This document shows, in pieces, positions 5,900-33,534 of a stretch of DNA of 64,000 bases. How positions within the stretch are numbered: the first letter of the stretch is position 1; each line of letters starts with the position of its first letter. The DNA comes from a virus: IMG/VR virus record IMGVR_UViG_3300044492_000179; one strand, written 5' to 3'. The translations under genes and the position numbers were made by a program. The notes beneath the pieces are model-generated. The model was not told the DNA's origin. It made no database searches and saw only the letters and a program-made list of their open reading frames with translations.

Positions 5900-6727
5900 A
5901 TGAGGAAACTACTTGCAGCAACCACCTTGGTACTCGCCATGGCGGCACCGGCCCACGCCCACCTGATCCTGTTCGACAACCCGAACCAACCGAACTCCGG
6001 GGACGCTGTGTCCCAGTCGTTCGTCGACTTCGGGGCACAGGGCTTCGGCAACAGCCCGGCGGCACTGACCCTGCAATCCAATGGCTCCCAGATCGGCAGC
6101 GTCACGCCGAGTATCACGGGAACCGCTGTCGTTCACGATCAGGCCATCGCCGGGAGCAACAAAGCCGCAACCCCAACGCTGACCGACTTGGGTTGGCTCG
6201 GCGGCAGCGTCGTTGCCATCGGCTACAACAGCAATCAAAGCAACCAGACCGGCATTACGCTCCAGCAACTGGCGCTGACGGTCTACAGTGGAACGACGGC
6301 GCTCGCCTCGTTCAGCCTCGCCACAAACCTGATCCCGCTGCAGTTTACGGCAGCCGACCTGCAACTGCAGGAAGGCCACGGCAACGCGATCTTCGGGTTC
6401 GTGCTGGACACGCAAGAGCGCGCTCAGTTCAACGCACTCGTCGCCCTGACCGGCAGCGGTGATTTCCGGGTTGGCCTGGCCGCCAACATGGGATGCTTCG
6501 GGGCTGCGGGCAACGACCCGAATTGCCAAGTCTCGAACGACGGCGCCGACACGTTCTATCTCATCGCCCGCGGCAACCCGATCATCAACCCGACCTGCCC
6601 GGATTGCGTCATCAACCCGGTCGACGTCGTTCCCGGCCCGGTGGCCGGTGCCGGTCTGCCGGGGCTGTTCGCCGCCTGCGTCGGGCTGTGGGGCTGGCGG
6701 CGCCGCCGTCACGCGCCTGTGGCGTAG
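5900..6727 (+). CDS. Secreted protein with PEP-CTERM-like (VPGP) C-terminal sorting signal
   Basis: Signal peptide MRKLLAATTLVLAMAAPAHA; tail VPGPVAGAGLPGL + hydrophobic helix + RRRR. Confidence 0.85.
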   Translation: MRKLLAATTLVLAMAAPAHAHLILFDNPNQPNSGDAVSQSFVDFGAQGFGNSPAALTLQSNGSQIGSVTPSITGTAVVHDQAIAGSNKAATPTLTDLGWLGGSVVAIGYNSNQSNQTGITLQQLALTVYSGTTALASFSLATNLIPLQFTAADLQLQEGHGNAIFGFVLDTQERAQFNALVALTGSGDFRVGLAANMGCFGAAGNDPNCQVSNDGADTFYLIARGNPIINPTCPDCVINPVDVVPGPVAGAGLPGLFAACVGLWGWRRRRHAPVA

Positions 6728-6766
6728 TCACCTTGTCTCAGTCTCACCTCATTGGAGTTTACCTTC

Positions 6767-7462
6767 ATGAAGAAGCTGCTGCTGTTCACGACCGCTGCAC
6801 TGATCGCCACGCCGGTGGCGGCCACCGCAGACATGGCGTTGCGCCTGCAAGACGGCGCGCTCGTCCAGGATTTCTTTTCTGCGCCTGGAGCGAGTTCGTT
6901 CACCGGGCCGACCGACTTCGCGTTTGGAGATTTCACGATCTCCAACATCACGGGATCGACGACGCCGTCGACCACTGCCCCGGTGCTGTTGTCGACGAAC
7001 ACCTTGGACCTTCAGTCCACGGACATCGGATCGCACGTCCTCGACATCTTCGTCACCGGCAACAATTTGTTGTTCCCGACGGGCATCAACAACACCTTCT
7101 CGGGCTTCACCAGCGTTTCGTTGTCGGACGGCTGGACCTCGTCGTTGTCTACTTTGCTCGACACCGGCAATGGCAACTTCACCGGGTCGTTGGTTGACAG
7201 CATCGTGTTCAACGGCAACGGCATCTCGACGTTCTCCAACAACCAGACCGCCCTGGCGGACTTCGGTACTGGGCCGTACTCGATCACGGCGCACTACCAG
7301 ATCACGACCAACGGCACCGGACAGGCCAACAGCGGCATCCAGTTCGCCGCCGCGGCAGTCCCCGGCCCGGTCGTTGGCGCCGGCCTGCCCGGCCTGATCG
7401 CCGCGGGTCTGTTCATGGTCGGCCTCGCCAAACGTCGCCGCAACCGATCAGCTCAGGCCTGA
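6767..7462 (+). CDS. Secreted Ser/Thr-rich protein with PEP-CTERM-like (VPGP) sorting signal
   Basis: Signal peptide MKKLLLFTTAALIATPVAATA; tail VPGPVVGAGLPGL + TM + KRRR; RBS GGAG at 6754. Confidence 0.85.
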   Translation: MKKLLLFTTAALIATPVAATADMALRLQDGALVQDFFSAPGASSFTGPTDFAFGDFTISNITGSTTPSTTAPVLLSTNTLDLQSTDIGSHVLDIFVTGNNLLFPTGINNTFSGFTSVSLSDGWTSSLSTLLDTGNGNFTGSLVDSIVFNGNGISTFSNNQTALADFGTGPYSITAHYQITTNGTGQANSGIQFAAAAVPGPVVGAGLPGLIAAGLFMVGLAKRRRNRSAQA

Positions 7463-7560
7463 CGGGCCCTCTGCCCACTGCCCTCCCGTCAGCATGAGGG
7501 CGCGTGCGGGTCTATGTGCCGCGTCCCGCACGCGCATCATGCTCTGCTGGAGCTGCCCGC

Positions 7561-7698
7561 ATGATCGAATATGAGTTCATGACGATGGGGCAAATCCCGT
7601 TTGGCTATATCGCCGGCTTTGGGATCGTCGTGTTGGCGCTAGTGGTACTGGCCGCCTACGGGTGGCTCGTCGCGGTAGCGCGGATAATGGGATCGTGA
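7561..7698 (+). CDS. Small membrane protein (duplicated at 63098-63235)
   Basis: MIEYEFMTMGQIPFGYIAGFGIVVLALVVLAAYGWLVAV, one TM segment. Confidence 0.55.
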   Translation: MIEYEFMTMGQIPFGYIAGFGIVVLALVVLAAYGWLVAVARIMGS

Positions 7699-7847
7699 CC
7701 ACCCGTCCCGAGATCCGCGAAAAATCACCGCGCTACTGGAAGACCGGCCGCAAGCTCAGCGCCAAGCGGATCGCCGAGAACGAGCGCGCCGCAGAACTCA
7801 GCCGGTGGATCAAGGAAGAACTCGCCAGGGCCAAAACCGAGATCTAA
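7695..7847 (+). CDS. Small basic protein (duplicated at 63232-63384)
   Basis: GTG start overlapping the upstream stop; 50 aa. Confidence 0.5.
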   Translation: MTTRPEIREKSPRYWKTGRKLSAKRIAENERAAELSRWIKEELARAKTEI

Positions 7848-7861
7848 GCCGAGGAGAAAAA

Positions 7862-8089
7862 ATGACCGTCACTTATGAAACGCGGTGCGACAAAGTCGAT
7901 TGGGACAATCTCAAAACGGAAGTTATCACAAAGCTCGAATACCTTCGCATGGCCTGGGCGGCTTCGGAGCAGGGCGCGCCGACTGAATTGCATAGGAAAA
8001 TTGTTAACGATCTTTATGTCCCGGCTATTCGCCTGTTAGCGGAGTTTTGCGCGTGTCTCGAAGTGGATGAAGCACCGGACGACCAATGA
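7862..8089 (+). CDS. Hypothetical protein (duplicated at 63399-63626)
   Basis: Strong RBS GAGGAG before ATG; 75 aa. Confidence 0.65.
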   Translation: MTVTYETRCDKVDWDNLKTEVITKLEYLRMAWAASEQGAPTELHRKIVNDLYVPAIRLLAEFCACLEVDEAPDDQ

Positions 8090-8106
8090 GCCAATCCAAA
8101 TGAACA

Positions 8107-8295
8107 TCAAGATCGCGCTGCCCCGCATGCCGGCAAGCTTGGCCAAGGCGCTCGATCTTGTCTGTCGGCGATCTTGATCGGGCGCGGAAAACCATGCTCG
8201 CGCTGCTTGCGCATCAGATCGGTGCGGTTTTTCACGAGGCCGGCGCGCACAAGGCCGTCAAACCGAAAACCTTCGGCGCTCGGAAGATCATTCAT
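8107..8295 (-). pseudogene. AlpA/excisionase-like regulator, 3' end replaced at the repeat boundary
   Basis: GLVKNRTDLMRKQREHGFPRPIKIADR matches the AlpA-type FPxPIKI motif; sequence switches into the 720-bp repeat at 8157/8158. Confidence 0.55.
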
Positions 8296-8379
8296 TTGTG
8301 ACGCCCTCCAACAAAATCAGAGCGTCATCGAAATAGCATCACACCCACATCACTGTGCAGCCGGGACGAAATCATTTAG

Positions 8380-8494
8380 TTTCGAGCAGGACACCAGCAG
8401 CCCGGTGCAAATGAAGTTGTCGGAATTGCCAGCAGCGCTTGCCAATCCGAGCGCTCTGGCAGGGTTGAGGCAGAAGCAGGCGCCGCCAAAGTGA
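8380..8494 (+). pseudogene. C-terminal fragment paralogous to the gene at 10744-11001, opposite orientation
   Basis: FEQDTSSPVQMKLSELPAALANPSALAGLRQKQAP versus FVQQDTSDPVQIPLSELPAALANPSVLVGLRKKRAP. Confidence 0.7.
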
Positions 8495-8910
8495 CTTGTC
8501 GCAAGTGCGAGGAAAGGCGGCGACGACTTGGCGCAGCTTTGCGCGCGTCGTTCCCACCAGCATGGTCAACCAAATCGATGACAATCACCCGGAGTCTGAT
8601 GGTGGTCGTTCTTGTCGTTGTCACGACGCTGGCTTGCGTCGGCAGTGGTTATTTGTTGGCGGAAGCTCAGCAGCCATTGGAGTTGCCACCACCAGCACTG
8701 TCCAAATACGAACAGCAAATTATCGAGTACGATCGCGCGGCAATTGTCAGTGCCTACAAGGAGCAAATTCACCACCTGTTTTTGACCTGGGCCAAAGATG
8801 ATCGCGACCAGCCCAGAAGAGCTACCATTGGCGCTCGGCGTGCGCGATTGATGTTCGAGCGCTCGATGCTGGCACTCGAAGAGCGCGAGCGACTTTATCG
8901 CGGCAGATAA
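8491..8910 (+). CDS. Membrane-anchored protein in lysis region (start uncertain, possibly 8578)
   Basis: Hydrophobic VVVLVVVTTLACVG segment followed by a helical soluble domain; directly upstream of the endolysin. Confidence 0.55.
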   Translation: MTCRKCEERRRRLGAALRASFPPAWSTKSMTITRSLMVVVLVVVTTLACVGSGYLLAEAQQPLELPPPALSKYEQQIIEYDRAAIVSAYKEQIHHLFLTWAKDDRDQPRRATIGARRARLMFERSMLALEERERLYRGR

Positions 8911-8923
8911 TGGAGACGCAGCA

Positions 8924-9721
8924 ATGGCTGATCCGATCAACCCGCTCGTATGCGACCTGTCGCACTGGAACATGGCTGACGACTACGAGGCTGCAAGACG
9001 AGACGGAATCGTGGGCGTGATCTACAAGGCGACCGAAGGGCAGAGCTACACCGACGACACCTATGTCGGACAGCAACAGGCCGCGAAAGCGGCTAGGCTT
9101 TGTTGGGGCTCATATCACTTCGCCGACGCTTCCGACGTTGGCGGCCAGATCGACAACTATTTGAGATTTGCCGCGCCTGATCCAGACGAACTGTTTTGCC
9201 TGGATTGGGAGGACAACCCGAGCGGCAACGGCGTGATGTCGAAAGACGATTGCAAGACCTGGATAATCGAAGTCGAGCGCGCACTGCGGCGCGAAGGCGA
9301 ATGCGTCGTGTACAGCGGCAACACCGCCAAAGAGGCATTGGATGATGATGTCGATACGTTCTTCGGGTCACGCCGGCTGTGGCTCTGCCAGTACGGCACG
9401 ACACCAAGCTGGCAGCGGTCGTGGGACAATTACTGGCTTTGGCAATTCACCGATGGCGAGTATGGGCCAGAGCCTCATTCAATCAGCGGCGTCGGCGAGT
9501 GCGACATCAACTCCTACGCCGGAAGCGCGGAGCAGTTGGTGGCTGAATGGGCCACCGGCTCAGCCGATATACTGCCGCCAGCCCCAGCCCCGCATGACCC
9601 AGTCGTGAACATCATCATCGCTGCGTCGCCGGGCGTGATCGTGAAGGTGAGGCAGACACAATTCAGTACGGCGTACCGCCAAATGCTGCCGGATCGACGC
9701 AGGGAAGCCGACGTCGAGTAA
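8924..9721 (+). CDS. GH25 muramidase (endolysin)
   Basis: DLSHWN, IYKATEG, WGSYHF, LDWED, VYSG, LWLCQY, WQFTD and DINSY are the GH25 motif series. Confidence 0.9.
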   Translation: MADPINPLVCDLSHWNMADDYEAARRDGIVGVIYKATEGQSYTDDTYVGQQQAAKAARLCWGSYHFADASDVGGQIDNYLRFAAPDPDELFCLDWEDNPSGNGVMSKDDCKTWIIEVERALRREGECVVYSGNTAKEALDDDVDTFFGSRRLWLCQYGTTPSWQRSWDNYWLWQFTDGEYGPEPHSISGVGECDINSYAGSAEQLVAEWATGSADILPPAPAPHDPVVNIIIAASPGVIVKVRQTQFSTAYRQMLPDRRREADVE

Positions 9722-9755
9722 AGTAAGCTGTTTGACGCAAAAGGAGAAGTTGACC

Positions 9756-9977
9756 ATGAATTTAATCTATGTCGCGATCGTGCTGGCCATCATCGCGGCG
9801 GGCGTCGACTACTTCATCGGCGGCATTCAAGAGCCGTGGCGCAAGATCGTTATCGCCGGGATCGTCGTGATCTTTGTGCTCGGCCTGCTGCTGGTGCTGG
9901 TGCCAGGCGTCTTTCCACTTCGGCTTGGCCGCGTGACTGATGAAGCCGTCTTGCTGCTGGCTTGGCCGGCCGGTTAG
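9756..9977 (+). CDS. Two-TM small membrane protein, holin candidate
   Basis: RBS AGGAG; two hydrophobic helices; immediately after the endolysin. Confidence 0.55.
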   Translation: MNLIYVAIVLAIIAAGVDYFIGGIQEPWRKIVIAGIVVIFVLGLLLVLVPGVFPLRLGRVTDEAVLLLAWPAG

Positions 9978-10078
9978 TGCGCACGCATGAACATCAGCAG
10001 CAGCAGCACGGCCAGGATCGGAAGCGTGCCAGCGGAAACGACCTGCGCCACCAGCAAACGGTCGATCGGGCTTCGCAT
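9974..10078 (-). CDS. Small hydrophobic peptide
   Basis: MRSPIDRLLVAQVVSAGTLPILAVLLLLMFMRAH; ATG overlaps the stop of the upstream minus-strand ORF. Confidence 0.4.
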   Translation of the reverse strand: MRSPIDRLLVAQVVSAGTLPILAVLLLLMFMRAH

Positions 10079-10359
10079 CACAGGCTCGTTGAATAATTTA
10101 AATTCAACTGATCACCATTCACTACGGCCTTATCACCCGTGCTGAGCGTGCCGGCACTCCACAGCACGCCGCCGGTGTCGTCCTTGGTGGCGACCGCGCC
10201 GGTGCCGAAGCAGAGGAACGCACCCTTGACGGTGCCGGTGCCGGTGATGGCGAACGACAGCGCCGCCGACAATGCCTTTCCCCCAGCCGTGGCCGCCGAC
10301 CACACGGCGGTCTTGCGGTTGCCGGTATAGGTCGGCGCGTTGGCACCAACTCGGCTCAC
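10078..10359 (-). pseudogene. C-terminal fragment of a phage virion structural-type protein
   Basis: ANAPTYTGNRK...ITGTGTVKGAF...TKDDTGGVLWSAG...GDKAVVNGDQLNLNY resembles a recurrent tail-region protein; N-terminus appears missing. Confidence 0.5.
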
Positions 10360-10403
10360 GGCCCGGTGTTTGCCTCACCGGGCGGCCCGCCTATCTTACA
10401 TCC

Positions 10404-10643
10404 TCACGCGCGCAGCGGCACCACCCTGTCGCCGGTCACGCCGCCCGACACGATGTCAGCAACGTGTTGGTCCCAGACGTTGAGTGCCTGCCGCATCGGG
10501 GCTTCCAGTTGCGCGAGATTGTAGGCGGCCCTGCACACCCGATCGGAACCCGGTGTGGTTCAGACATAGCTCGACGACGTGCGGGGAGACCCCCAACTCG
10601 CACAGGCCGGTCGCCGTGGTCCGGCGCAGATCGTGCAGGGTGC
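10404..10643 (-). pseudogene. Tyrosine integrase C-terminal remnant with frameshift
   Basis: Hand translation gives TLHDLRRTTATGLCELGVSPHVVELCLNH, then after a 1-nt shift near 10530 AYNLAQLEAPMRQALNVWDQHV...VVPLRA*. This is the HxxR / H / Y catalytic box; the N-terminal part is absent. Confidence 0.85.
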
Positions 10644-10644
10644 T

Positions 10645-10740
10645 TCAGCGCGCGAAATCCAGCGCGATCAGTATGACCGCCGCGAACGCGAGCACCGCCA
10701 GCATGATCGCCAGCCACGCCTCTCGCTCCTGCGGCGTCAT
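10645..10740 (-). CDS. Small single-TM peptide
   Basis: MTPQEREAWLAIMLAVLAFAAVILIALDFAR; follows 10744-11001 directly. Confidence 0.5.
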   Translation of the reverse strand: MTPQEREAWLAIMLAVLAFAAVILIALDFAR

Positions 10741-10743
10741 GGG

Positions 10744-11001
10744 CTAACCCGCCGTGGCTGGCTTCATCGGCGCGCGCTTCTTGCGCAGCCCCACCAGAAC
10801 ACTCGGATTAGCAAGCGCCGCCGGCAATTCGGAGAGCGGTATCTGCACCGGGTCACTGGTATCTTGCTGGACGAAAGTGTCTCCAGTCGGCTCGCCAGCG
10901 TCGTCCATCGACGCTCGCTCCGGACCCATGAATACCGTCACCAGCGGATTGCTCTCACCATTCGGAACCTCAGCCTGAAACCGCCACGGGAATAGCGCCA
11001 T
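10744..11001 (-). CDS. Hypothetical protein at end of tail operon
   Basis: 85-aa ORF coupled to the tail fibre gene; paralogous fragment at 8380-8494. Confidence 0.65.
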   Translation of the reverse strand: MALFPWRFQAEVPNGESNPLVTVFMGPERASMDDAGEPTGDTFVQQDTSDPVQIPLSELPAALANPSVLVGLRKKRAPMKPATAG

Positions 11002-11002
11002 G

Positions 11003-13021
11003 TTATTTCCCCTTCCTTTTTTCGAGGGCCTCGATGCGCGTCATTGCGCCCGCGAATGCCGACGCCAGCAGTTCGACGGCCAACCACAATCGGTTCTGCA
11101 TGTCGTCCAGCGACTGTTGACCAGGCTTCCACTCGCTGGCCGTGGGCATTCCCGGCAGTGCCTCGTTGCGCAGCATCTGCTCGACGTATTGCTGCGGGTC
11201 GCGCGGATCGAAATCTCTCAGCATCTCGACAAACTTGTGCGCCAGATCATGCTTGCCGGTAGGGCTCACGGCATCCCACTGCGCGAGGTCGACCTTGCCG
11301 TGCTTGAGGTATTGCATCCCGAAGCACGTCAACGCCGTTCCACCGGAATAGACATTGCCCTGCGCGCGGACATCGCCGCCGACACCCAGCCCACCCGCCA
11401 CCTTCAGCGCGCCGGTCGTGGGGGAGGTGGAGGCGGTGGTGTCAGGGATATTCAGTGGACCCCCTGCTAAATAAAACACGCTGCCTGTCCACTGCAGATA
11501 CTTCGTGAAGGCATCGCCGAAATAATAAAGCCCGGTGGCGGGAGTTGCGGCAAGGGAGGAAACAAAAGCAGTTCCGTAAACATCCTTCGCGTTAATGTTG
11601 CCACCGATCCCCAGCCCACCCGCCACCGTCAGCGCGCCCGTGGTCGGGGAAGTACTAGCAAGCGTGCTGTCCGCCCAGACACGGCTGCCGCCAAGTTTTA
11701 GTGGCTGGAAAGAACCAAAGCCGGTCTTATCGACCCCCTCCACGACGCCGCCGATCACATCGGTGCCAATTCGAACACCGTAGGTAGGCCCAGAAACCAG
11801 CAGCGTTCCGCCATTAGCGACGGCCTCGGATATCCGCATTTGATTGCCAAAATAAGCCATCCCGCTGACACCGAGTCCGCCCGCCACCGTCAGCGCGCCC
11901 GTGGTCGTGCTGCTCGATGCGGCGAGCGACCCCACCGTCAGGCTGCCGTCAGGACCAACGGAAAAACGGTAGCTCTTGAAAGGCGAGCCCAGGAATGTCG
12001 CACCCGTCAGGTCGATTCCGTCGGTAATTGTCGGAGCACTTTTGACGGCCAGAATACTGCCCGTCGTCTGCAGCGGAGTGGCGCCGTACTCTTCGCCGAC
12101 CTGTATCAGCGTTCGCCAGCCCACCGCGCTAGGCTGATTGGAAAACAGCACGGCCGCGTCGTTGCGACTGCCGGCCACCGCGTCCTTGGAGGTCTGGACG
12201 ATCTTGAGGCCATACTTGTTGAGCGCGCTCGAGCCGGCCTCTAGTTGGGTGTTATACTCCGATATGCTCGCCTCCAGCAGGTTCTTGGCCGCGGGCGCAA
12301 GCCAAACGACAGGGTTGGTCGCAAAAACATAACCGCGCTCGCTCCCGACCCCGCCACCGTCCGACGACGTGGCCTGCCCCAGGAACATGGCGCCGACGTA
12401 AAATTGATTACTGTTGGTCGGCGCCGAAGGCGCGTCCAAGCTGGTAATGACCTGCAGCCCCTGCCGGCCGCCCTTCATCGCGGCCCCGCCGAAGGTGTGC
12501 ACAATCGCCAACCCGTCCACGAAGCCGGTTCCGGCATCGAGCGTATCGCTCCAGACCGAGACCTGGTTCAGGGCGCCGGTGTTGGCTGTGCGGGGGCGAA
12601 CGCCAAGCGTACCGGGCAGCAGCAGCGCCGCCGCGCTGCCGGCGATCGTGCCGGCAGGATTCTGGTAGACGTCGAGCGCCCGGTCCGTGGCCGGCGGCGC
12701 GACCTTGGCCGTCGCATTGACCGTCAGCTGCCCGCTCATGGCGTCACCGGCCTTGGACACCTTTGGCGTTTCGAGCTTGGCGTCGGAAATGCCGCCGTCG
12801 AGGATGCCGATATTCACGACCGTCGTGCCGCCGCCACCGGACAGGCCGTCGCTCACACCGACGGAATGGATAACCCCAGGCACGCCGTCGTCGCCCTTTG
12901 CCCCTTGCGGACCGGGCGGGCCCTGCTCCATCGTCTGGATGACTTCGGCCATGTCATCGAGCATGACAACAACAGACGCGATCCCGACATCCACATCCTG
13001 CGTGACGACTACCTCTTTCAC
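11003..13021 (-). CDS. Tail fibre / receptor-binding protein
   Basis: Short collagen-like GPPGPQG, Gly/Ser/Thr-rich body, three S(T/P)TTGAL(T/K)VAGGLG repeats, C-terminal coiled coil MTRIEALEKR typical of fibre chaperone ends. Confidence 0.8.
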   Translation of the reverse strand: MKEVVVTQDVDVGIASVVVMLDDMAEVIQTMEQGPPGPQGAKGDDGVPGVIHSVGVSDGLSGGGGTTVVNIGILDGGISDAKLETPKVSKAGDAMSGQLTVNATAKVAPPATDRALDVYQNPAGTIAGSAAALLLPGTLGVRPRTANTGALNQVSVWSDTLDAGTGFVDGLAIVHTFGGAAMKGGRQGLQVITSLDAPSAPTNSNQFYVGAMFLGQATSSDGGGVGSERGYVFATNPVVWLAPAAKNLLEASISEYNTQLEAGSSALNKYGLKIVQTSKDAVAGSRNDAAVLFSNQPSAVGWRTLIQVGEEYGATPLQTTGSILAVKSAPTITDGIDLTGATFLGSPFKSYRFSVGPDGSLTVGSLAASSSTTTGALTVAGGLGVSGMAYFGNQMRISEAVANGGTLLVSGPTYGVRIGTDVIGGVVEGVDKTGFGSFQPLKLGGSRVWADSTLASTSPTTGALTVAGGLGIGGNINAKDVYGTAFVSSLAATPATGLYYFGDAFTKYLQWTGSVFYLAGGPLNIPDTTASTSPTTGALKVAGGLGVGGDVRAQGNVYSGGTALTCFGMQYLKHGKVDLAQWDAVSPTGKHDLAHKFVEMLRDFDPRDPQQYVEQMLRNEALPGMPTASEWKPGQQSLDDMQNRLWLAVELLASAFAGAMTRIEALEKRKGK

Positions 13022-13362
13022 CGCGTTGCTCCCGCATTATTCGTCAGCAGACCTGACCAGACGCGAATCTTGTTTCCGTACATCGTTAGGATGTTCGAGT
13101 GGTCAAACTCGCCAAGGCCGAGCTGCACCAGCGTGCCCTGCTGAATTCGCACGGAAAATTTGCCAGCCACTGGATCGATCAGGACGATTTCGCCGGTATC
13201 GGTCGCGAGACGCAGCAGTGCGATCGCGTCTTTCGCGTGCCGCCGCAGCATCATCTCCATCGAGCCGCCGGTCAAATCGATCGGAGCGCCGTCGATCGTC
13301 TGGTACGAGAACGAGCGGTAAAAGTCCGCGTCGTTGTAGGTGGTGATGTTGACGATGGCCAT
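13018..13362 (-). CDS. Tail/baseplate-associated small protein
   Basis: PIDLTG..MEMMLR...IVLIDPVAGKFSV pattern; position between fibre genes. Confidence 0.6.
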   Translation of the reverse strand: MAIVNITTYNDADFYRSFSYQTIDGAPIDLTGGSMEMMLRRHAKDAIALLRLATDTGEIVLIDPVAGKFSVRIQQGTLVQLGLGEFDHSNILTMYGNKIRVWSGLLTNNAGATR

Positions 13363-13374
13363 GACGAACGAACC

Positions 13375-15257: not shown

Positions 15258-15258
15258 G

Positions 15259-18828: not shown

Positions 18829-18835
18829 GTCGCCC

Positions 18836-20038
18836 TCACGGTAATTGGCTGTCGATCTGCCGCCGCGCGATGGCTTCGGCTCGCTGCTCGGCGCGAAAGA
18901 TCACGTCGGCTTCGCGGTAATTGTAGCGCCCGTTCATGTGCACGGGCTTGACCATCGTCATCGTCGTCGTGGTGCCGCCCTCGCTCTGCTCGTAGGTGCA
19001 GCCCGCGCAGCCCAGCACCTCGTCGTACATGATCAGCGACGGCGAGGTGACGGCATAGTATTCGCCCGCGCGCCATATCTCCTCGGACAGGTTGGCGTCC
19101 TTGAACCAGCCCTGCACCGTAATCTGCGCCTCGATGTTGGAGCCTTCGGTGAACACGAACTCCATGTCGGCGCGGCGCTGGATGCCGTGCATCTTGTCGG
19201 CCACGTCCGCCACCACCACCATGTGCCGGTCGCGGCTGGAGCTGCCGTCGCGTTCCGCCACCTGCTTGTTCTCGGTGTCGCCGTTCGCGCCGTCACCGCC
19301 CTTGTTCTGTCCGACCGAGAAGATGCGCTTGTAGATCTTGTTGTCGCGCACCACCGCGTTGGCGCGCAGGATGTTGCCACTCTCGACCAGATAGCCGCTT
19401 GTTTGCACCGGGTGCTCGCCGATCAGCAGCAACCCGCCATTGGCCATCGACCCGATGACGATGCTGCGCATCTTGGCGTAGCGGTCGATTGCCATCATCG
19501 GAGTTTCCCCCGGCAGCACCTGCAGGTTCTCGAACGGCGTCCCGTCCACGTTGCCTTTGGTGTGGATCTGAATGCCGAGATGCGCAGCCAGATCACGCGC
19601 GAGCTGCTCCACCGACTGGCCGTCGTGGCCATCCAGCTTGTCGAGCGGCACCGACGAGTCGACCAGATCGATGGTGTCGCCGCAGCCGATCAGCCGCACA
19701 CCGTGGTTGTTGGCGTCGTAGCCGACGTGGCGCTCGGTGATGTAGCCAAACACCGCCGGATAGCCGCCCAGGAACACCCGCACGATGTCGCCGGGGACGA
19801 ACTGCGCGCCCTGGATGGTGAGCGGGACCGACGACTCCTCGGTGCACTCGAACTGAAACACTGGGAAGCTCTCGGTCCACTTCTGCTCGACCCGCACCGA
19901 TGTCCAGTTGGTGTAAATCTGCCCGCGCACCTCCAGGCTTGCGATCTCCTTGGAGCCTGGGCGGCGGATGATGACTTGATCATCCGGCGCTTCCGCGTCC
20001 ACCTGCACTCCGGGAATTTCAACGACTGTGATGCCCAT
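18836..20038 (-). CDS. Baseplate hub, Mu gp44/P-like
   Basis: YTNWTSVRV, TIDLVDSS, VQGWF; position after the DNA circularisation-type genes. Confidence 0.8.
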   Translation of the reverse strand: MGITVVEIPGVQVDAEAPDDQVIIRRPGSKEIASLEVRGQIYTNWTSVRVEQKWTESFPVFQFECTEESSVPLTIQGAQFVPGDIVRVFLGGYPAVFGYITERHVGYDANNHGVRLIGCGDTIDLVDSSVPLDKLDGHDGQSVEQLARDLAAHLGIQIHTKGNVDGTPFENLQVLPGETPMMAIDRYAKMRSIVIGSMANGGLLLIGEHPVQTSGYLVESGNILRANAVVRDNKIYKRIFSVGQNKGGDGANGDTENKQVAERDGSSSRDRHMVVVADVADKMHGIQRRADMEFVFTEGSNIEAQITVQGWFKDANLSEEIWRAGEYYAVTSPSLIMYDEVLGCAGCTYEQSEGGTTTTMTMVKPVHMNGRYNYREADVIFRAEQRAEAIARRQIDSQLP

Positions 20039-20040
20039 CG

Positions 20041-20703
20041 TTACACCGCCAGCATCTTTCCCTGCCTTGGGCAGAACGCGGGATGGACGACCGAATTCTC
20101 TGCAATCAGCTCAAGGTGGCGCATCGGGTCGGCGTAGGCGCGCTGCGCCATCCGCAGCGACGGCATCACGCCCTGGTAGCTGTAGTTGATGACGCGCGGA
20201 AGCTGCCGCCCACGCACGGCGAGGTGCTGGGTAACGCTGCCGTGCAGGTTGATCATCGCCATGTAGGTCGCGGCATCGAGGTCGTCGGACGCCACCTCGA
20301 TGGTCTGCGTGAACGCGGCGTTCATCACACCGGCAATTGCATCGACCTCCTCGCGCGAGCGGAAGGTCATGTAGGCGACGATGCGGGCCTCGGTTGCCAG
20401 CGTCAGCCGCACCATGGCGAGCACGGTTTGCACTGCCTGCAGGCTGACCGGCCGCTCCGCCAGTGCCGCCTTGCGCACCCGGTCCATGGTGGTCAGCGTG
20501 GCCTTACAGTTGCGCGCGAGATCGACGCAGACGCTGAAGGCGTAGCAGAAGGTTTCCAGGTCCAGCATGTTGGGATCGACCACCATCATGCCGACCGCGC
20601 GCCGCAACGCCGTGCCCACGGTTCCGGTCAGCCGCACGGCGGCCGACAGCACCACCGGGCCGATCCGCTTGACGATCCCAACGATTTCCTCGTCGCTCAT
20701 CAT
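20041..20703 (-). CDS. Mu gpN-like protein, C-terminal part as separate ORF
   Basis: PSLRMAQRAYAD..RHLELIAENSVVHPAFCP is the C-terminal motif of Mu N-type proteins. Confidence 0.7.
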   Translation of the reverse strand: MMSDEEIVGIVKRIGPVVLSAAVRLTGTVGTALRRAVGMMVVDPNMLDLETFCYAFSVCVDLARNCKATLTTMDRVRKAALAERPVSLQAVQTVLAMVRLTLATEARIVAYMTFRSREEVDAIAGVMNAAFTQTIEVASDDLDAATYMAMINLHGSVTQHLAVRGRQLPRVINYSYQGVMPSLRMAQRAYADPMRHLELIAENSVVHPAFCPRQGKMLAV

Positions 20704-21320
20704 GGGATGAAGGTCATGAAGTTGCCCCAGGGCGTGAGGCGGTTCATCCGCGCCTCAAGACTTGCGTTCATCTCCCCGGCGCTCTTTTTCACCAGCGCAT
20801 AGCCAACCATCTTGCTGATCTGTTCGTCGGTCTTGCGCGCGGGCGGCCCGATCAGTTGATCCTCAAGCTGGAATGCGTCGTCCTCGACCTGCCCCGATGT
20901 CGAAACCTCGCGCCGGAATTCTGGGTCGCCATACTCGACGAAGTCCATCTCGACCGTGCAATAGCCGCCCTTCTCGCGCGCCTCGGTGACGGTGTAGGAC
21001 ATCACCATGACCATCTTGTCTGTCATCTCGAATGGCAGCGGAAGCCGCAGCAGGCCGGGGCCGTCCTTCTCAAGCGCGTCGATCAGCCGGTTTTTCTGGT
21101 CCCAGTAATTCGGCCCGATAAGGTAGCCCTGCACGAGAAAGCGCAGAGCTTTGTGCCCCATATCCTCGGCGTATGGCGTGTTGCGCTTCGGGTATTCGTG
21201 CACTGCCACGCGCCGCCCGCCCTGCTGCGCATCGCTCTCGACGAAGAACTGCACGTTGCGGAACGCCGCCTCCTGATAGCGCTTGCGCCACGGGTTCGGG
21301 ACCTTGTCCTTGATGCTCAT
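20700..21320 (-). CDS. DNA circularisation N-terminal domain protein (Mu gpN-like)
   Basis: AAFRNVQFFV...GGRRVAVHEYPKRNTPYAEDMG. Confidence 0.85.
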   Translation of the reverse strand: MSIKDKVPNPWRKRYQEAAFRNVQFFVESDAQQGGRRVAVHEYPKRNTPYAEDMGHKALRFLVQGYLIGPNYWDQKNRLIDALEKDGPGLLRLPLPFEMTDKMVMVMSYTVTEAREKGGYCTVEMDFVEYGDPEFRREVSTSGQVEDDAFQLEDQLIGPPARKTDEQISKMVGYALVKKSAGEMNASLEARMNRLTPWGNFMTFIP

Positions 21321-23683
21321 ATGCTCAGCGTCTCCCCGGCGTCCTCGGTGCGCTGCATCTGCTTGTGCTGTCGCACCGTCGTGCCTTGGTAGAGGTCGCC
21401 CGCCTCGTTGACCTTGGCGTCGGCCTTGGTGCCGTTGGAATTGACCGTGACGTTGACGTTGCCGTTGACCGACGGCGGCCTGATCGCACCGTTGATGCGG
21501 TTCATCTCGCGCTGCCGGGTTTTCAGTATGGTCGCCGCCCATGACGGGTCGGTGCTGTTGTAGCCGCCCTTAACCAAGTTACGCATCGTCTCTTCCGGCG
21601 TGTCGCCGTAGCGACCACCCCAGCGCTTGGCGTGGTCCTCGAAGCCCTCGGCCAAAGAGCCGTAGACCTTGTGCTTCTGACCGTCCGCGCCGATGATGAA
21701 GCCCTGCGAACCGACGCCGGTCTGCCCGAACGGGTTGGTGCCACCGGAGCGATCGAAAATGCCGCCCTTACCGCGCTGCATGTTGCCGCTCTCGTGCATT
21801 GCGATGGCAGCAGCCGTGTCAGGGTCTTTGATGCCAGCCGCGACCGCCGCCGCGCGCGCCTTCATGAATGGCGTCTGCTGACCATTCGGGGCCGTCCCAC
21901 CGCTGTTCTTGATCAGCGCCTCCCGCGCCGCCTCGGCACTGCGAATGCCAAAGTGGCCCTGATCATTGCTCTTCCACTTGTTGCCCGAGACGAGGCCCCA
22001 CTTTTCTGCGAGCTCGTCCTCCATTCCGGGGGCCAGTGATCTCCCGGTCCCGCCGCGAATTCCGCGCCCGACCTGATTGATGTCGATGGCGGCACCAATC
22101 GGATGTCCCGATGCGTTGTGAGGGCGAGAGCCAAGCGTGCCGGTGGCCGAACCCAGCGTGCCGCCAGCCCCCTCGTAGTCGTTGATGAACCCTTGGAAGT
22201 TCTGCGCGAACCGCTCATCGACCTGAAACTTCTTGCCGCTGGGGGAGGTGACGGTCGCCAGCCCGCTGCGCGCGATCGCGGTGCCAGCAGGAGCCGTGAT
22301 GCCTGCAGGGCCGCCTTGCGAGCCGCCGCCAACACCTTGGCCGTTAGGGTTGCCGGTTGTCGTACCGGGCGGCCCCGATGGCCCGGTCCCCGACGGGCCG
22401 GTGCCGCCCGTGGATGCCGCGCGGAAAGCTCGTCCAATCGGGGTGTTGTCCCCCGTGCCGCCGGGGCTGTAGGAGGCGTTGGTGAAGCCGTTTCCGCCAC
22501 CCAGGCTGCCCCTGCTGCCGCCCGAGAACTCCACCAGGGCGTCGTACACGCCGGTTTGCACGATGCGCGATGCCCCGCTGCTCTCGCCGCCGTCGTCGCC
22601 AAAGCCGCCGAACGAAATTGGACTGAAGCCACGGGCGCGGCGCGCGGCGCGCTTCTCCTGCAGCGTCGGCGGCGGCGGCGCGCTTGGGGGGAGGTCACCT
22701 GACTGAGCCTTCCAGCCAAACGGGTCCCATTTGTCCATGCCGGTGAGTCTGTTGATCCACCCGACGGCTGCTCCCATCGGATCGGAGGCTGCGCCCTTGC
22801 CGCCGTCCCCCTTGCCAGCCGTCTTGTCGATCCAATTGTCGATCCACGTCAGCCCACTGATGATCTTGTCGATGTCTTCGAGATCGCGGCCGATCATCGG
22901 CATGATGCGCACGCCGATCTTGGCCTTGAGCAAATCGAAGTTCTCGCCCATGTCGACGAGCATGCCGTTGAATTTTACGGCAGTGGCAATCTCATCGTCG
23001 GTAAACACCTTCTTCGTCTTGTACGTTTCGTAGAACTGCTCCCACGACAGCCGCGCCACGCCCGCACCCAGTTGGATCTTGTCGAAGAACCGTCTGCCCT
23101 TTTCTCCTGACGGGTCCTCCTTATCGAGCGCCCCCTTGAAGCTGAACGCCTGCTTAAGGGCATCCAGCATGTCGGTTGAATTCTTCACCCGGTTGACGAA
23201 GTCGCCTGCGCCCATCGCGTATAGCTCGCCGCGCAGCGAGCCGATCCGCATCTTGAAATCGTCCACATTGCTCTTGAAGCCAGCGAGGCCCGCCATCATG
23301 GCCTCAGGCGCCATGCCTGCCTTCTGCGCCTCGGACGTGAAAGCGCGCAGCGCCTGTTCGCTCAGCCCCAGCTCCTTGCTGGCGTACTTCATCTGGACGA
23401 TCTTGGATGAGATGTCGCCCAGCGTGCCGGTCAGCGTGCGGGCGGCAACCCCGACGCCAGCCGCGCCCAAGCCGAATGCCCCCAGCGACGGCACCGCCGA
23501 CTTCAGCTCGCTGCCGACGCCCTTGATGGTCTTGCCGAGCGCGCTGAAGCTGCTGTCGACCTGCTGAACGCCCTTGCCTGCCCGTACCGGCACCGCGCCG
23601 ATCTCACGGCCGATCGCGCGGATGTTCGCCAGCGCCTCCTCGCTGACGACGGTCGCGCGTAATCGAAGGACGTCATCGGGCAT
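21317..23683 (-). CDS. Tape measure protein with putative peptidoglycan-hydrolase domains
   Basis: Helical N-terminal half after the tail chaperone genes; C-terminal SGHPIGAAID...WGL...DQGHF (M15 peptidase-like) and HESG...NPFG...YGSLAEGFEDH (glucosaminidase/lysozyme-like). Confidence 0.75.
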   Translation of the reverse strand: MPDDVLRLRATVVSEEALANIRAIGREIGAVPVRAGKGVQQVDSSFSALGKTIKGVGSELKSAVPSLGAFGLGAAGVGVAARTLTGTLGDISSKIVQMKYASKELGLSEQALRAFTSEAQKAGMAPEAMMAGLAGFKSNVDDFKMRIGSLRGELYAMGAGDFVNRVKNSTDMLDALKQAFSFKGALDKEDPSGEKGRRFFDKIQLGAGVARLSWEQFYETYKTKKVFTDDEIATAVKFNGMLVDMGENFDLLKAKIGVRIMPMIGRDLEDIDKIISGLTWIDNWIDKTAGKGDGGKGAASDPMGAAVGWINRLTGMDKWDPFGWKAQSGDLPPSAPPPPTLQEKRAARRARGFSPISFGGFGDDGGESSGASRIVQTGVYDALVEFSGGSRGSLGGGNGFTNASYSPGGTGDNTPIGRAFRAASTGGTGPSGTGPSGPPGTTTGNPNGQGVGGGSQGGPAGITAPAGTAIARSGLATVTSPSGKKFQVDERFAQNFQGFINDYEGAGGTLGSATGTLGSRPHNASGHPIGAAIDINQVGRGIRGGTGRSLAPGMEDELAEKWGLVSGNKWKSNDQGHFGIRSAEAAREALIKNSGGTAPNGQQTPFMKARAAAVAAGIKDPDTAAAIAMHESGNMQRGKGGIFDRSGGTNPFGQTGVGSQGFIIGADGQKHKVYGSLAEGFEDHAKRWGGRYGDTPEETMRNLVKGGYNSTDPSWAATILKTRQREMNRINGAIRPPSVNGNVNVTVNSNGTKADAKVNEAGDLYQGTTVRQHKQMQRTEDAGETLSI

Positions 23684-23692
23684 GGCCGTGGC

Positions 23693-23866
23693 TCAGTGCG
23701 ATCGCGTCGTCTCTGCAATGGCGAGTAATCTGTCGGTCCACTCCATGTGCTGCTCGACCTCATCGAGCGGCATCGCGAGAAATTCCGCCGGGGAACAGGA
23801 ATAGACTCGCGCCAGCCGATAGCAGTTCAGTACTGCATCGCCTGGACGCCCGGCGGGAAAAAACCC
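23693..23866 (-). CDS. -1 frameshift extension of the tail assembly chaperone (gpGT/GpE'-like)
   Basis: -1 frame after the slippery site reads FPAGRPGDAVLNCYRLARVYSCSPAEFLAMPL and ends just before the tape measure gene. Confidence 0.75.
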   Translation of the reverse strand, partial: GFFPAGRPGDAVLNCYRLARVYSCSPAEFLAMPLDEVEQHMEWTDRLLAIAETTRSH

Positions 23867-24177
23867 ATGAGCGCATGGGCGCAGGTCGACCAGTCCTCGC
23901 TGTCGAGCGCCTTGATGGTGGAGGGCGGCACCGCCGCCAGCGTGGACATCATAGCGCCCATGACCTCTGGGTTCGGTGCAATCCTCCCGGTCTGCCAATC
24001 GATGACGATCGGATAGCCGTTGCCCATCGCCATGATGTCGCCTCCGGTCGGCCTGCGGAACACCAGCTTCTTCACCATCTCCCCGTTCGCTTGCACGGGC
24101 GTGGTCAGGTCGATGACGATCTCTTTCGGGCGCTTCAGCTCGACTACGTCCGCCGCCTTGACTGCCGCTTCCGCCAT
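23827..24177 (-). CDS. Tail assembly chaperone
   Basis: IDLTTPV....KKLVFRRPTGGDI...IKALDSEDW; between tube and tape measure. Confidence 0.85.
   Translation of the reverse strand: MAEAAVKAADVVELKRPKEIVIDLTTPVQANGEMVKKLVFRRPTGGDIMAMGNGYPIVIDWQTGRIAPNPEVMGAMMSTLAAVPPSTIKALDSEDWSTCAHALMGFFPPGVQAMQY
23857..23866 (-). other. Programmed -1 frameshift slippery sequence GGGTTTTTTC
   Basis: Zero-frame ATG GGT TTT TTC gives X XXY YYZ heptamers (G GGT TTT and T TTT TTC) near the chaperone 3' end, with an open -1 frame downstream. Confidence 0.75.
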
Positions 24178-24187
24178 TGCGTGCTCC

Positions 24188-24556
24188 CTACGACGTCAGC
24201 TCGTCGCCATCGACGCCTTCGAACCTGATCCGAAACTGGCCGTCGTGCGTGTTGATCTCGACCGGCCCTTTGACCCACGCATTGCGCAGCACGTAGGTGT
24301 GCCCATTCACCAGCTCGGCGGTGACGGTGGCATCGGTGATGCTTTCCAGGAACTCGGTGCTGACCTCGGGCAAGGTTGAGAGATCGCCCTCGATGTACGG
24401 CACGCGCGGCAGCTCCTGGTAGCCGTGCACGTAATCCTGACCGGCGATGCCGGTGCGCTCGACCTGCGTGATCGAGACGGTGAGGCTGCCCTTGAGCGGA
24501 AACATCGCTCCGTCAACCTTCAGATATGCGGTGCCGGCGATAGGTCCTTGCGGCAT
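24188..24556 (-). CDS. Tail tube protein (Mu gpM-like)
   Basis: IAGTAYLKVDG...GYQELPRVPYIEG...ATVTAELVNG. Confidence 0.85.
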   Translation of the reverse strand: MPQGPIAGTAYLKVDGAMFPLKGSLTVSITQVERTGIAGQDYVHGYQELPRVPYIEGDLSTLPEVSTEFLESITDATVTAELVNGHTYVLRNAWVKGPVEINTHDGQFRIRFEGVDGDELTS

Positions 24557-24872
24557 GCAAGCCTCCATGATTAAAGGGGCATGCATCCGTAGAGGTCTAA
24601 CTGAGAGGGGGCAGGCGAAACGCGCCTACCCTCTTTTTTATTGCGATCTTAATAGCAGCCAAGTTTTCAAATGAAAGTCGTCCAAGGTCGTGCAAATGCT
24701 TTCCGTTGGTTGGAGATACCTTTCTCCAAACTCGCCCAGGTAGTTAGTGCGACTTCCGGGTTGTAATGAAGCGTTGCGTGAGCTGTCGACCGCGATAACC
24801 CGCTCCCGCCACGATCGAATACAGCCCTGTGTAGGTCCCGACATCGATGGCGACCAGACCGGGCGCGCGCGA

Positions 24873-25502
24873 TCACTGCCACGCCTCTTGCACCCACGGC
24901 GGCTTGTGGGTCCCTCCGCAATTGATGACCGCCGAGTGCTTCGGTGGGTGAATTGTCAGGTCGCGGTAATTGCAGAAAAAATCCCGTGGCATCAGGGCTT
25001 GCAGGAACAGTGCGTTGGGATACAGAAGCTCAATGGCCTTCTGGTCGCCGTAGCGCCCCGACCGCTCAATGTACCAGTCGCGACGGTGGTCGAAGCGCGA
25101 CCAGATGAACCCGCACTGGCCGCCGCCGATCACCATGACGCTGCTACTGTATTTGCAGGCGCCGACGGCACCCTGGTTCGCCAAAATGCTGAACTCGCCA
25201 ACCGCATCCGCAAGTGGTGTAATGTCGTTGATGAGAATGTTGTCGAGATCGAGATAAACTACTTTTGATCGGCCGCGCCACTCGGGAGCGAACAAAATCA
25301 TTTTAGCCCAGCAGCTCTTGAGCCCGATCTCCTCGATGTCGATGAAGGTCACGTCATCGCAACGCTCCCTCTGGTCGGTCAGGCAGACCAGTTCATAGGG
25401 GCGCTGCATGTGGCGCGCGACCATGTTGCGCATCTTGGTGACGTGGCCAAAGTCGAAGGCGGTTCCGGTGCGGACACACGCGACAATGACATCGCCGATC
25501 AT
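24873..25502 (-). CDS. Glycosyltransferase-like protein (GT-A, DxD)
   Basis: VTKMRNMVARHM..PYELVCLTD, WAKMILF, VVYLDLD, YSSSVM, GDQ, HKP pattern of GT8-like enzymes. Confidence 0.75.
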   Translation of the reverse strand: MIGDVIVACVRTGTAFDFGHVTKMRNMVARHMQRPYELVCLTDQRERCDDVTFIDIEEIGLKSCWAKMILFAPEWRGRSKVVYLDLDNILINDITPLADAVGEFSILANQGAVGACKYSSSVMVIGGGQCGFIWSRFDHRRDWYIERSGRYGDQKAIELLYPNALFLQALMPRDFFCNYRDLTIHPPKHSAVINCGGTHKPPWVQEAWQ

Positions 25503-26203
25503 TTTTTCAGCATTGCCACGCCGTCATCGAGCGTGACCTTCTGAAAACAGCGAATTGCCGATGCTGGACAGGCATTCGCAATGTGAACGCCACGCTTGTT
25601 GAGGTGCGGGACGTAGACTTCGAAGTGGCTTGCCCAGACCTTCCAGTTCTCGTGATTCTGTGCCCGCTTCTTGTCATGCTGCTGGTTGTCTTGAAAGGAA
25701 CCGTCATAGTCGTAGCCGAACAAGATGATGCGCTTGGCCTGCTTGTGCAGGCAGATTTGCAGTGCACCGAACCCGCTGGTGCCGCCGCCATAGATCGCGC
25801 TTGGATCTTCAGACACCGCCTGACCCACCAGCCGCTTGACGAAGGTGACGTTGCGCGATGGCGGCGCAGCACCTGTCTTGGTGAGCTGGTCCTCGGGGAC
25901 AGCCCAGTAGACACGCGCCGGCACGTCGGCGAGCTTGTCGCGCCATTCGGCATAGCGCTCCATGTCGAGACCGAACCCGGCGTCCGCCCATGGGATGTCG
26001 AAGATCGACCCCTTGACCGCAAGGATGGTCGCGCCCCGCAGCCTTTCGAAGTCGAAGCCGACGAGTGAAGGCCCATCGGCGACGATCGCGACCGGCTGCT
26101 TGTCCCAGTACGGCGATCCCACCTTGCCGTAGGTATCATTCGCGTCGAAATCCGCATCTGGCGGTGCCGTGACCATGCGCCGGTTGACTCGTCCTGTCGT
26201 CAT
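25499..26203 (-). CDS. Glycosyltransferase/DUF115-like Rossmann-fold protein
   Basis: VAIVADGPSL, ILAVK, GGGTSGFGALQI, KRIILFGYD motif series seen in sugar-transfer-related phage proteins; exact activity unknown. Confidence 0.6.
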   Translation of the reverse strand: MTTGRVNRRMVTAPPDADFDANDTYGKVGSPYWDKQPVAIVADGPSLVGFDFERLRGATILAVKGSIFDIPWADAGFGLDMERYAEWRDKLADVPARVYWAVPEDQLTKTGAAPPSRNVTFVKRLVGQAVSEDPSAIYGGGTSGFGALQICLHKQAKRIILFGYDYDGSFQDNQQHDKKRAQNHENWKVWASHFEVYVPHLNKRGVHIANACPASAIRCFQKVTLDDGVAMLKK

Positions 26204-26223
26204 CGTCCGCCTCGGAGCTTTAT

Positions 26224-26802
26224 TCAGGCTGAAATCCGCTTCGAGGCGTTGCGCCGCCGGTTGAGACCTAACAGCGCGAAAGCCGCGGCAAGCAGCCCCG
26301 GCAACCCTGCACCAGCAATTGGTCCCGGAACTCCAGAGACCGACAGATTGCCGCCGTAGCCCGCAAGCGCGCCAGCATTACCCTGAATCTGCAGATAGTA
26401 GTGGCCGGCATTGAGCAACCCACTACCGTTGAGTTCCTGGCTCAAGCCATCTGCACTGATGGTCGCAAACTGGGGCCCGAACTTCAGTTCATCGCCGTTA
26501 CCGATGGTGCCATCAGGGTCAAGAAAGATCGCCGCAGCGAAATTCTGAATGCCGAAGGGGCCGGTGACGCCGCCAATGGCGAACGTGTTGGTCGCCGATG
26601 CCACGGTAACGAACGTCGGACCACCAACAAGATCAAACGTGTACTGGTCTTGAAACAACCCACCTACGAGCGGGCCATTTGGGTCGTTCGAGAACGCACC
26701 GGCAGCCGAGGTCGGATTGACTCCGAACGTGCCGATGATGGCAGCTTTGCTCGACGCCGGCATGGCCAGCACAATCGCGAACGCAAGTAAACATGCCCTC
26801 AT
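26224..26802 (-). CDS. Secreted protein with PEP-CTERM-like (VPGP) sorting signal
   Basis: Signal peptide MRACLLAFAIVLAMPASSKA; tail VPGPIAGAGLPGL + TM + RRR. Confidence 0.85.
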   Translation of the reverse strand: MRACLLAFAIVLAMPASSKAAIIGTFGVNPTSAAGAFSNDPNGPLVGGLFQDQYTFDLVGGPTFVTVASATNTFAIGGVTGPFGIQNFAAAIFLDPDGTIGNGDELKFGPQFATISADGLSQELNGSGLLNAGHYYLQIQGNAGALAGYGGNLSVSGVPGPIAGAGLPGLLAAAFALLGLNRRRNASKRISA

Positions 26803-26907
26803 GGTTGGGACTCCCTCTGTTTTTGTTGATGATCGTCTAAAGTTCTGGATGCGCCGCCCGAAAGCGGGTGCATCCAGGCTCGGCCTCGAGCAGCGCGCCG
26901 GGGTCGC

Positions 26908-33522: not shown

Positions 33523-33534
33523 CGCATTACTCCT

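Follow-up and report, generated by a model that had tools for sequence, protein, structure and literature searches.

A 64,000-nt stretch of viral DNA (IMG/VR record IMGVR_UViG_3300044492_000179), whose full length is referred to here as the window, encodes three putative exported proteins (genes 1, 2 and 3) that share a C-terminal tail composed of the motif VPGPxxGAGLPGL, a hydrophobic helix and an arginine cluster. On comparative support, the best-supported reading is that these proteins are phage cargo meant for an exosortase of the host, and a probability of about 0.68 is assigned to it. The preliminary description of this DNA had proposed that the phage borrows a host exosortase. This proposal is upheld in part, in that the tail behaves as a sorting signal, is phage-borne and tracks a divergent host exosortase (17 of 17 enzyme-bearing genomes), an enzyme that the Pfam exosortase model misses. 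The entire window is phage DNA and derives from two phages, which were named X and Y.

Three genes with a common C-terminal tail

The three genes and their tails are located as follows.

Gene 1: 5900..6727, plus strand; 275-residue putative exported protein, with a leader at residues 1-20 followed by a beta-rich body.
Gene 1 VPGP tail: residue 244 onward, nt 6629-6724, plus strand; 59.2 bits against the tail profile.
Gene 2: 6767..7462, plus strand; 231-residue putative exported protein with a beta-sandwich body.
Gene 2 VPGP tail: residue 198 onward, nt 7358-7459, plus strand; 60.7 bits against the tail profile.
Gene 3: 26224..26802, minus strand; 192-residue putative exported protein of the FxDxF PEP-CTERM-type family.
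Gene 3 VPGP tail: residue 158 onward, nt 26227-26331, minus strand; 57.9 bits against the tail profile.

The N-termini read MRKLLAATTLVLAMAAPAHA for gene 1, MKKLLLFTTAALIATPVAATA for gene 2 and MRACLLAFAIVLAMPASSKA for gene 3. In each of them a Sec-type leader with a basic stretch, a hydrophobic core and an AxA-type end was recognised, as judged by eye from the translations. The C-termini consist of VPGP(V/I)(A/V)GAGLPGL, about 12 hydrophobic residues, RRR and a few further residues. Across the three aligned tails the residues V, P, G, P, G, A, G, L, P, G, L, A, A, G, RRR and a final A are invariant, and the predicted models of genes 1 and 2 place a helix at the tail position.

A tail profile (A3) was built from 55 such tails and spans 39 positions. 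By running this profile against the six frames of the whole window, genes 1-3 only were found, with scores of 57.9-60.7 bits and E values of 1e-16 to 6e-16, which excludes a chance origin of the three tails. The three open reading frames (ORFs), their leaders and their tails were correctly placed from the outset. Products of the same 275, 231 and 192 residues are called on independent metagenome contigs. Outside the ends, a full-length alignment of the three proteins reaches a forced identity of 28-30%, so that their bodies, initially regarded as unrelated, are indeed unrelated to one another; each of them, however, falls in a family of PEP-CTERM-type cargo.

The tail as a probable variant sorting signal

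In the PEP-CTERM system, dependence on an EpsH-type protein, a polysaccharide link, a PrsT neighbour and several copies per genome have been described (Haft et al., 2006; PMC1569441). With this PEP-CTERM/exosortase system (EpsH, XrtA), the genes presented here share the leader, the C-terminal succession of motif, helix and basic cluster, the multiple copies and the diverse bodies, as well as polysaccharide loci, a PrsT-like TPR protein and an exosortase-family protein with conserved Cys, Arg and His. They differ in the motif, VPGPxxGAGLPGL, which has Gly for Glu and stays below the curated cut-offs; in the enzyme, which is missed by PF09721, lies outside the named Xrt subfamilies and barely reaches TIGR04178; and in that the cargo is phage-borne. 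The same three-part layout is found in the VPLPA-CTERM, VPDSG-CTERM, IPTL-CTERM and MYXO-CTERM tails.

The assignment of the tail to PEP-CTERM or VPLPA-CTERM did not survive comparison with the curated models, which none of the three tails reaches. With TIGR02595 (cut-off 16), the tail of gene 1 scored 12.9 bits only, and no match was obtained for genes 2 and 3. The three tails gave no match with the Pfam PEP-CTERM model (PF07589) or with the VPLPA-CTERM, VPDSG-CTERM (PF18205) and IPTL-CTERM models, and MYXO-CTERM gave 13.6 bits on one tail, below its cut-off of 20. The residues V, P, P, G, G, L, P and G do not vary across the alignment of 55 tails. Judged from these sequences, the tail is best described as an uncatalogued PGP variant of PEP-CTERM, with Gly in place of Glu.

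The bodies to which the tail is attached connect it with the recognised classes. Gene 1 has 163 homologues at E <= 1e-5, those listed being about 50% identical, and among the 120 matches listed the tail was of VPGP type in 80, PEP in 17, VPLPA-like in 6 and VPDSG-like in 4. Many of these PEP tails carry a precomputed PF07589 match, and the VPDSG-like ones a PF18205 match. The AlphaFold2 model of gene 1 reached a predicted local distance difference test score (pLDDT) of 83.7, and no convincing relative was found for it among solved structures. No tail-bearing family is represented more often in the fetched loci than that of gene 2 (57 proteins in 54 loci), and among 46 homologues the two tail prolines are the only invariant columns. 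Its model is a beta-sandwich with a terminal helix (pLDDT 86.2); the top matches in AlphaFold DB are PEP-CTERM proteins (E 3.7e-13, template modelling (TM) score 0.64), and those in the PDB are weak matches to beta-sandwiches resembling carbohydrate-binding modules (CBM-like). Gene 3 aligns with the FxDxF PEP-CTERM proteins (NF038126) over nearly its full length, from residue 7 to 184 and with the tail included (E 6.3e-12); it differs from them by the PGP tail and by a score of 46 bits, below the cut-off of 50, and is accordingly a homologue and not a curated member.

Among the homologues of genes 2 and 3, VPGP, VPLPA-like and PEP tails alternate on the same bodies. Hence VPLPA-like, VPDSG-like and PEP tails take the place of the VPGP tail on homologous bodies, even though their models miss the three tails described here. 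That one kind of body can bear either tail argues for an equivalent function of the VPGP tail and the recognised sorting tails. No homologue of the three phage bodies was found among the fetched chromosomal tail proteins.

Distribution of the tail on phages and hosts

A pattern scan of IMG/VR revealed 81 stretches that encode the tail, and the neighbours of the tail genes on these contigs include endolysin, RecE, RecT, integrases, major head protein, DNA polymerase and helicase; on the contigs examined, no conserved multi-pass membrane neighbour was found. Searching phage and alphaproteobacterial genomes, as proposed in the preliminary description, revealed the tail in both, namely in the 81 stretches and in Bradyrhizobium chromosomes. 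The concern that it might be a merely chromosomal feature is answered by the same stretches and by the recurrence of genes 1-3 on independent contigs.

By using a strict pattern, 18 loci were recovered from species genomes, mostly from Bradyrhizobium and unnamed Alphaproteobacteria, and five Bradyrhizobium-type genomes were found to hold 3-10 copies each, with scores of up to 74 bits. The distribution is patchy: the tail was detected at E <= 1e-5 in 4 of 251 genomes of the order and, at E <= 1e-6, in 5 of 201 genomes of the family and 17 of 201 of the genus Bradyrhizobium. Tail genes were also observed on three short contigs (L083, L096 and L097) binned into Verrucomicrobiota and Pyrinomonadaceae metagenome-assembled genomes (MAGs); mis-binning is likely, because these tails are near-identical to Bradyrhizobium ones.

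A divergent exosortase in Bradyrhizobium

The Pfam model PF09721 detected no exosortase in any of five tail-bearing genomes. This silence does not imply a lack of the enzyme, as the matches of TIGR04178 show that PF09721 is too narrow: G001, G002 and G557 each contain one weak match (about 24-28 bits, cut-off 23), located 30-45 kb from the tail genes. On the divergent exosortase so identified, TIGR04178 scores range from 22.4 to 27.9 bits against that cut-off, and the named Xrt subfamily models gave no match. The protein has 290-330 residues and 6-8 hydrophobic segments. In its profile (A4), C187, R233 and H248 are invariant, with the Cys in CSSLANMSL, the Arg in NVxR and the His in an H..xG motif, and these three are probably the catalytic residues.

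The gene divergent from the exosortase encodes a PrsT-like TPR protein (TIGR02917, 343.6 bits against a cut-off of 312.2), and the other neighbours are a 170-residue single-pass protein, a Wzc-like kinase and an ABC exporter. The genome G001 is that of Bradyrhizobium centrosematis LMG 29515, with the exosortase gene at 5937380-5938225 of the chromosome. Its exosortase operon and its tail genes share a polysaccharide cluster of ~80 kb, which contains a priming transferase, Wza-like and Wzc-like proteins, a flippase, acyltransferases, a pyruvyl transferase, an Asn-synthase-type amidotransferase and many glycosyltransferases; the Wzc-like, Wza-like, priming transferase, amidotransferase and glycosyltransferase genes each score below the XrtA-specific cut-off. 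The setting of the exosortase varies, with the polysaccharide cluster and PrsT-like gene in one group of genomes and an adjacent mini-substrate in another. Such a minimal system, made of the exosortase and the adjacent mini-substrate, was observed in nine Bradyrhizobium genomes (L161-L169; for example, L161:1865-3311 and L162:2464-3878). The mini-substrate has ~80-120 residues and consists of a leader, a short Cys- or Gly-rich linker and a tail of APGPxAGAGL, helix and RRRR.

The preliminary description saw no exosortase in the window, and a six-frame profile search likewise finds none; nor was a phage-encoded exosortase found in the 80 viral loci or, by pattern scan, in IMG/VR. Other candidates for the sorting enzyme were rejected. 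For rhombosortase (TIGR03902), only sub-threshold rhomboid-like matches were obtained, controls included. Two unannotated multi-pass proteins of the G001 cluster are confined to one genome sharing that locus, and a 10-helix neighbour in the same cluster is an acyltransferase. Separately, a third exosortase-like group with weak cyanoexosortase-type matches was noted at five loci (L118-L120, L124 and L125; for example, L118:9174-13387). It adjoins a 194-residue single-pass protein and an 895-residue protein with ~23 hydrophobic segments, and the locus is conserved near nicotinamide adenine dinucleotide (NAD) synthesis genes, with no link to the VPGP tail.

Co-occurrence of tail and enzyme

The exosortase profile A4 and the tail profile were run on the same 201 Bradyrhizobium species genomes. 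A4 scored above 330 bits in 17 of them, about 8% of the sampled species, and 11 of these 17 were shared with the 17 genomes positive for the tail at E <= 1e-6 (odds ratio 54, p 3e-10). Eleven exosortase loci were fetched, all six apparent exosortase-only genomes being among them. An APGPxAGAGL mini-substrate stood beside the exosortase in nine of the 11, including all six of those genomes, whose mini-substrate tails had been below the tail threshold in the first scan. The two remaining loci, in G591 and G525, lack a mini-substrate, and tail matches are present elsewhere in these genomes. With the sub-threshold mini-substrates taken into account, all 17 exosortase-bearing genomes have PGP-type tails (p 5e-20). 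The co-occurrence with a host exosortase, which the preliminary description had put forward as a check, is supported comparatively. No PGP-type tail was found in the 19 genomes whose exosortase is of the classical kind (58-79 bits).

Proposed route and weight of the evidence

The following route is proposed for the products of genes 1-3. The N-terminal leader would direct Sec export of each product, and the C-terminal helix would hold it in the inner membrane with the Arg cluster on the cytoplasmic side. The motif VPGPxxGAGLPGL would then lie at the periplasmic face, where it could be recognised and cleaved by the divergent host exosortase, which would hand the beta-sandwich body to the envelope or exopolysaccharide layer. 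The phages would supply cargo only, the enzyme coming from the host, and the likely outcome would be an altered cell surface or matrix of the lysogen or infected cell. More specific roles for the cargo, such as receptor masking, exclusion or biofilm modification, are guesses.

Several observations weigh against the exosortase reading. The tails of genes 1-3 miss every curated CTERM cut-off, and the Glu that defines PEP-CTERM is missing, with Pro-Gly-Pro in all three and in the 55 aligned tails. Six of the 201 Bradyrhizobium genomes are tail-positive, three of them strongly, without a detectable exosortase, and in one of these six only a degraded exosortase fragment was found. Outside the genus sample, the fragmented MAG G404 has 14 tails and the MAG G005 has 3, with no exosortase detected in either. 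The contexts of tail genes in exosortase-negative genomes are neither clearly prophage nor clearly chromosomal, as compared with a small reference set. Four Bradyrhizobium genomes with prophages of related terminase (58-70% identity to that of Y) have no tail and no exosortase. In addition, the co-occurrence tests ignore shared ancestry; the link of phages X and Y to the enzyme is drawn from the sampled Bradyrhizobium genomes; and we infer the export, cleavage, final location and biological role of the gene 1-3 products.

The alternative that best survives these points is that the tail is a mere C-terminal membrane anchor, in which case the products, once exported, would stay tethered and uncleaved on the periplasmic side of the inner membrane, with the Pro/Gly motif conserved as a structural hinge. 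The tails without a detectable exosortase in G644, G467, G582, G005 and G404 would be expected of an anchor, as would the missing PEP Glu, the failure to reach the curated models and the failure to find an exosortase on phage contigs. Even so, an invariant motif of 13 residues would be superfluous for a plain anchor, and the gene 2 family has no invariant columns outside this motif. Moreover, the tail tracks one exosortase subfamily, adjoining the enzyme in most of the fetched loci (9/11), and alternates on the same bodies with proven sorting-tail classes. A plain anchor is consequently considered unlikely, and sorting of the cargo by a host exosortase is preferred.

A broader proposal goes beyond this preferred reading and is put forward tentatively, as it is judged to be rather doubtful. 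Bradyrhizobium and its phages may share an undescribed "PGP-CTERM" system, consisting of a distinct exosortase subfamily and a tag of its own, in which many unrelated soil phages have repeatedly captured cargo and fitted it with this tag, and phage proteins of sugar-binding type would be attached to the host surface polysaccharide by the host enzyme. If this were true, the presence of the enzyme would decide which hosts benefit from, or are protected by, the cargo.

Twenty years after their description, the attachment targets of exosortases and the roles of PEP-CTERM proteins are largely unknown. A compact study case is offered here, with a near-invariant tag and an enzyme present in a minority of species of one well-studied plant-symbiont genus. 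Further assets are the minimal pairs of exosortase and mini-substrate and the dozens of phages that supply extra cargo. Taken together, the near-invariant tag, the patchy enzyme, the minimal pairs and the phage cargo allow the system to be tested in culturable strains that either possess or lack the enzyme. The tail and enzyme profiles would also name proteins that are now annotated as hypothetical.

Accessory position of the genes in both phages

The copy of the tail in the late structural operon had appeared unexpected for a cell-surface cargo. Gene 3 does lie between the sheath and tube genes of phage Y; it is, however, part of an insert, whose other genes are listed below.

Insert between sheath and tube: 24873..27444, minus strand; four same-strand genes, 2.9-kb insert.
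Pro-rich ORF of 178 residues: 26908-27444, minus strand; Pro/Gly-rich, with repeated PPGIWGG and HPIAPGGG units.
MptE-like putative glycosyltransferase: 25499-26203, minus strand; Atlas lead only.
GT-A-like putative glycosyltransferase: 24873-25502, minus strand; Atlas lead only.

The same four-gene insert was found on an independent contig of 55,680 bp. In a related prophage of the Bradyrhizobium genome G584, whose sheath is 65% and tube 72% identical to those of phage Y, the sheath and tube genes are ~140 bp apart and the insert is absent, so that the "late operon" position of gene 3 is a moron slot. The corresponding slot of phage X is variable as well, since the relative L010 has one different tail-bearing gene, of 378 residues, in place of genes 1 and 2. 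Consensus scans for a promoter or terminator of the tail genes' own, limited to sigma-70-type promoters, gave results at the level of shuffled sequence. As a separate observation, both putative glycosyltransferases beside gene 3 are common in phages by Atlas features and structure.

The best explanation of this setting is that two temperate phages of Bradyrhizobium type carry genes 1-3 as accessory (moron) genes. Phage morons, or lysogenic-conversion genes, such as bor and lom of phage lambda, stand beside lysis, integration or tail genes and encode envelope proteins of the lysogen. Genes 1-3 resemble them in being optional, unrelated to virion building, located in swap-prone slots and absent from close relatives. 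They differ from classical morons in that no promoter or terminator of their own was detected; moreover, the bor/lom-type products take general lipoprotein or outer-membrane routes, whereas the cargo of phages X and Y bears a tag for a sporadic, dedicated host enzyme. Full-text literature searches retrieved no paper describing phage-borne PEP-CTERM cargo, and the phage protein library searched contains no entry describing this accessory gene class. A class of phage accessory gene is therefore added.

The location of gene 3 on the late strand, between sheath and tube, could also mean that gene 3 and its neighbours serve the virion, as a tail-associated or decoration protein that is perhaps modified by the two adjacent glycosyltransferase-like proteins. 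The resemblance of these neighbours to phage glycosyltransferases fits such a role, and the beta-sandwich, CBM-like fold class of gene 2 also occurs in tail fibres. A leader and a C-terminal anchor would nevertheless remove the product from the cytoplasm, where tails assemble; the related prophage has the same sheath and tube genes without the insert; and the family of gene 3 is the FxDxF family of cellular cargo. For these reasons a virion role is regarded as highly improbable, and the accessory-cargo reading is retained.

Two phages in the window

The window had been described as a single phage. Its composition is given below; strands are stated for the larger units, and the individual genes belong to phage Y.

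720-bp module, copy 1: 7438..8157, plus strand; three small ORFs, starting within the last 25 nt of gene 2.
720-bp module, copy 2: 62975..63694, plus strand; direct repeat, 99.86% identical to 7438-8157.
Left arm of phage X: 1..8157, plus strand; TnpB, early genes, helix-turn-helix (HTH) protein, genes 1-2 and the module; phage X resumes at 63695-64000.
Phage Y: 8158..62974, no single strand; temperate phage of myovirus type, a 55,537-bp unit with one module copy.
GH25 lysozyme: 8924-9721.
Tail fibres and baseplate: 11003-20038.
Tape measure: 21317-23683.
Tail tube: 24188-24586.
Tail sheath: 27503-29041.
Major head protein: 30507-31520.
Portal: 33535-35121.
Large terminase: 35567-37606.
Large serine recombinase: 58635-60452.

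Phage Y also encodes a chaperone and replication genes. The ENA contig L130 is 100% identical to window positions 1-8157 and passes from there directly into 63695-64000; beyond the equivalent of position 64000, it encodes a tyrosine integrase and a different lysis and tail region. The left arm of phage X is also syntenic with the IMG/VR contigs L010 and L011. The independent contig of 55,680 bp, from the Joint Genome Institute (JGI), contains an identical gene 3 in the same context, and its agreement with the 55,537-bp unit between the repeats indicates that phage Y lies inside X at the common module. By the module repeat, L130 and the JGI contig, genes 1 and 2 are assigned to X and gene 3 to Y, and the single-phage description is set aside. 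The X-Y join may reflect either a real event of homologous recombination, with both phages resident together, or the route that the assembly took through the shared module.

That genes 1-3 are host genes misjoined to phage DNA by assembly or binning is scarcely credible: the window is a composite of two genomes at a repeat, and thus possibly an assembly artefact, and the tail also occurs in chromosomal polysaccharide loci, but contigs of several independent samples contain genes 1 and 2 at 100% identity and with the same phage surroundings, gene 3 lies between sheath and tube on the 55,680-bp contig, and eighty further viral contigs carry the tail beside phage genes.

When 33 kb of the window were compared with GenBank phage records by megablast, no match was obtained, and tRNA and Rfam scans of the window found no RNA genes. 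A TnpB (IS605 OrfB-type) gene with PF07282 and PF01385 is located at 19-780 on the plus strand, in the early region of phage X, and is missing from some sister contigs (L132). Each phage encodes one small protein of a common layout, at 5478-5873 and at 55368-55826 (both plus strand), in which a hydrophobic segment at the N-terminus is followed by a Pro-rich middle and ultimately by a C-terminal Cys...Y..GR.WRC motif; no family was found for either. Upstream of the terminase region, where genes are sparse, lies a 58-bp near-perfect palindrome (93%) at 38166-38221, a possible site for packaging or operator binding. The region 55461-58635, upstream of the serine recombinase, has a lower guanine-cytosine content (0.574) and contains ORFs of 336 and 529 residues. 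One ORF within this region shows 74% DNA identity to a gene on the phage X-type contig L132.

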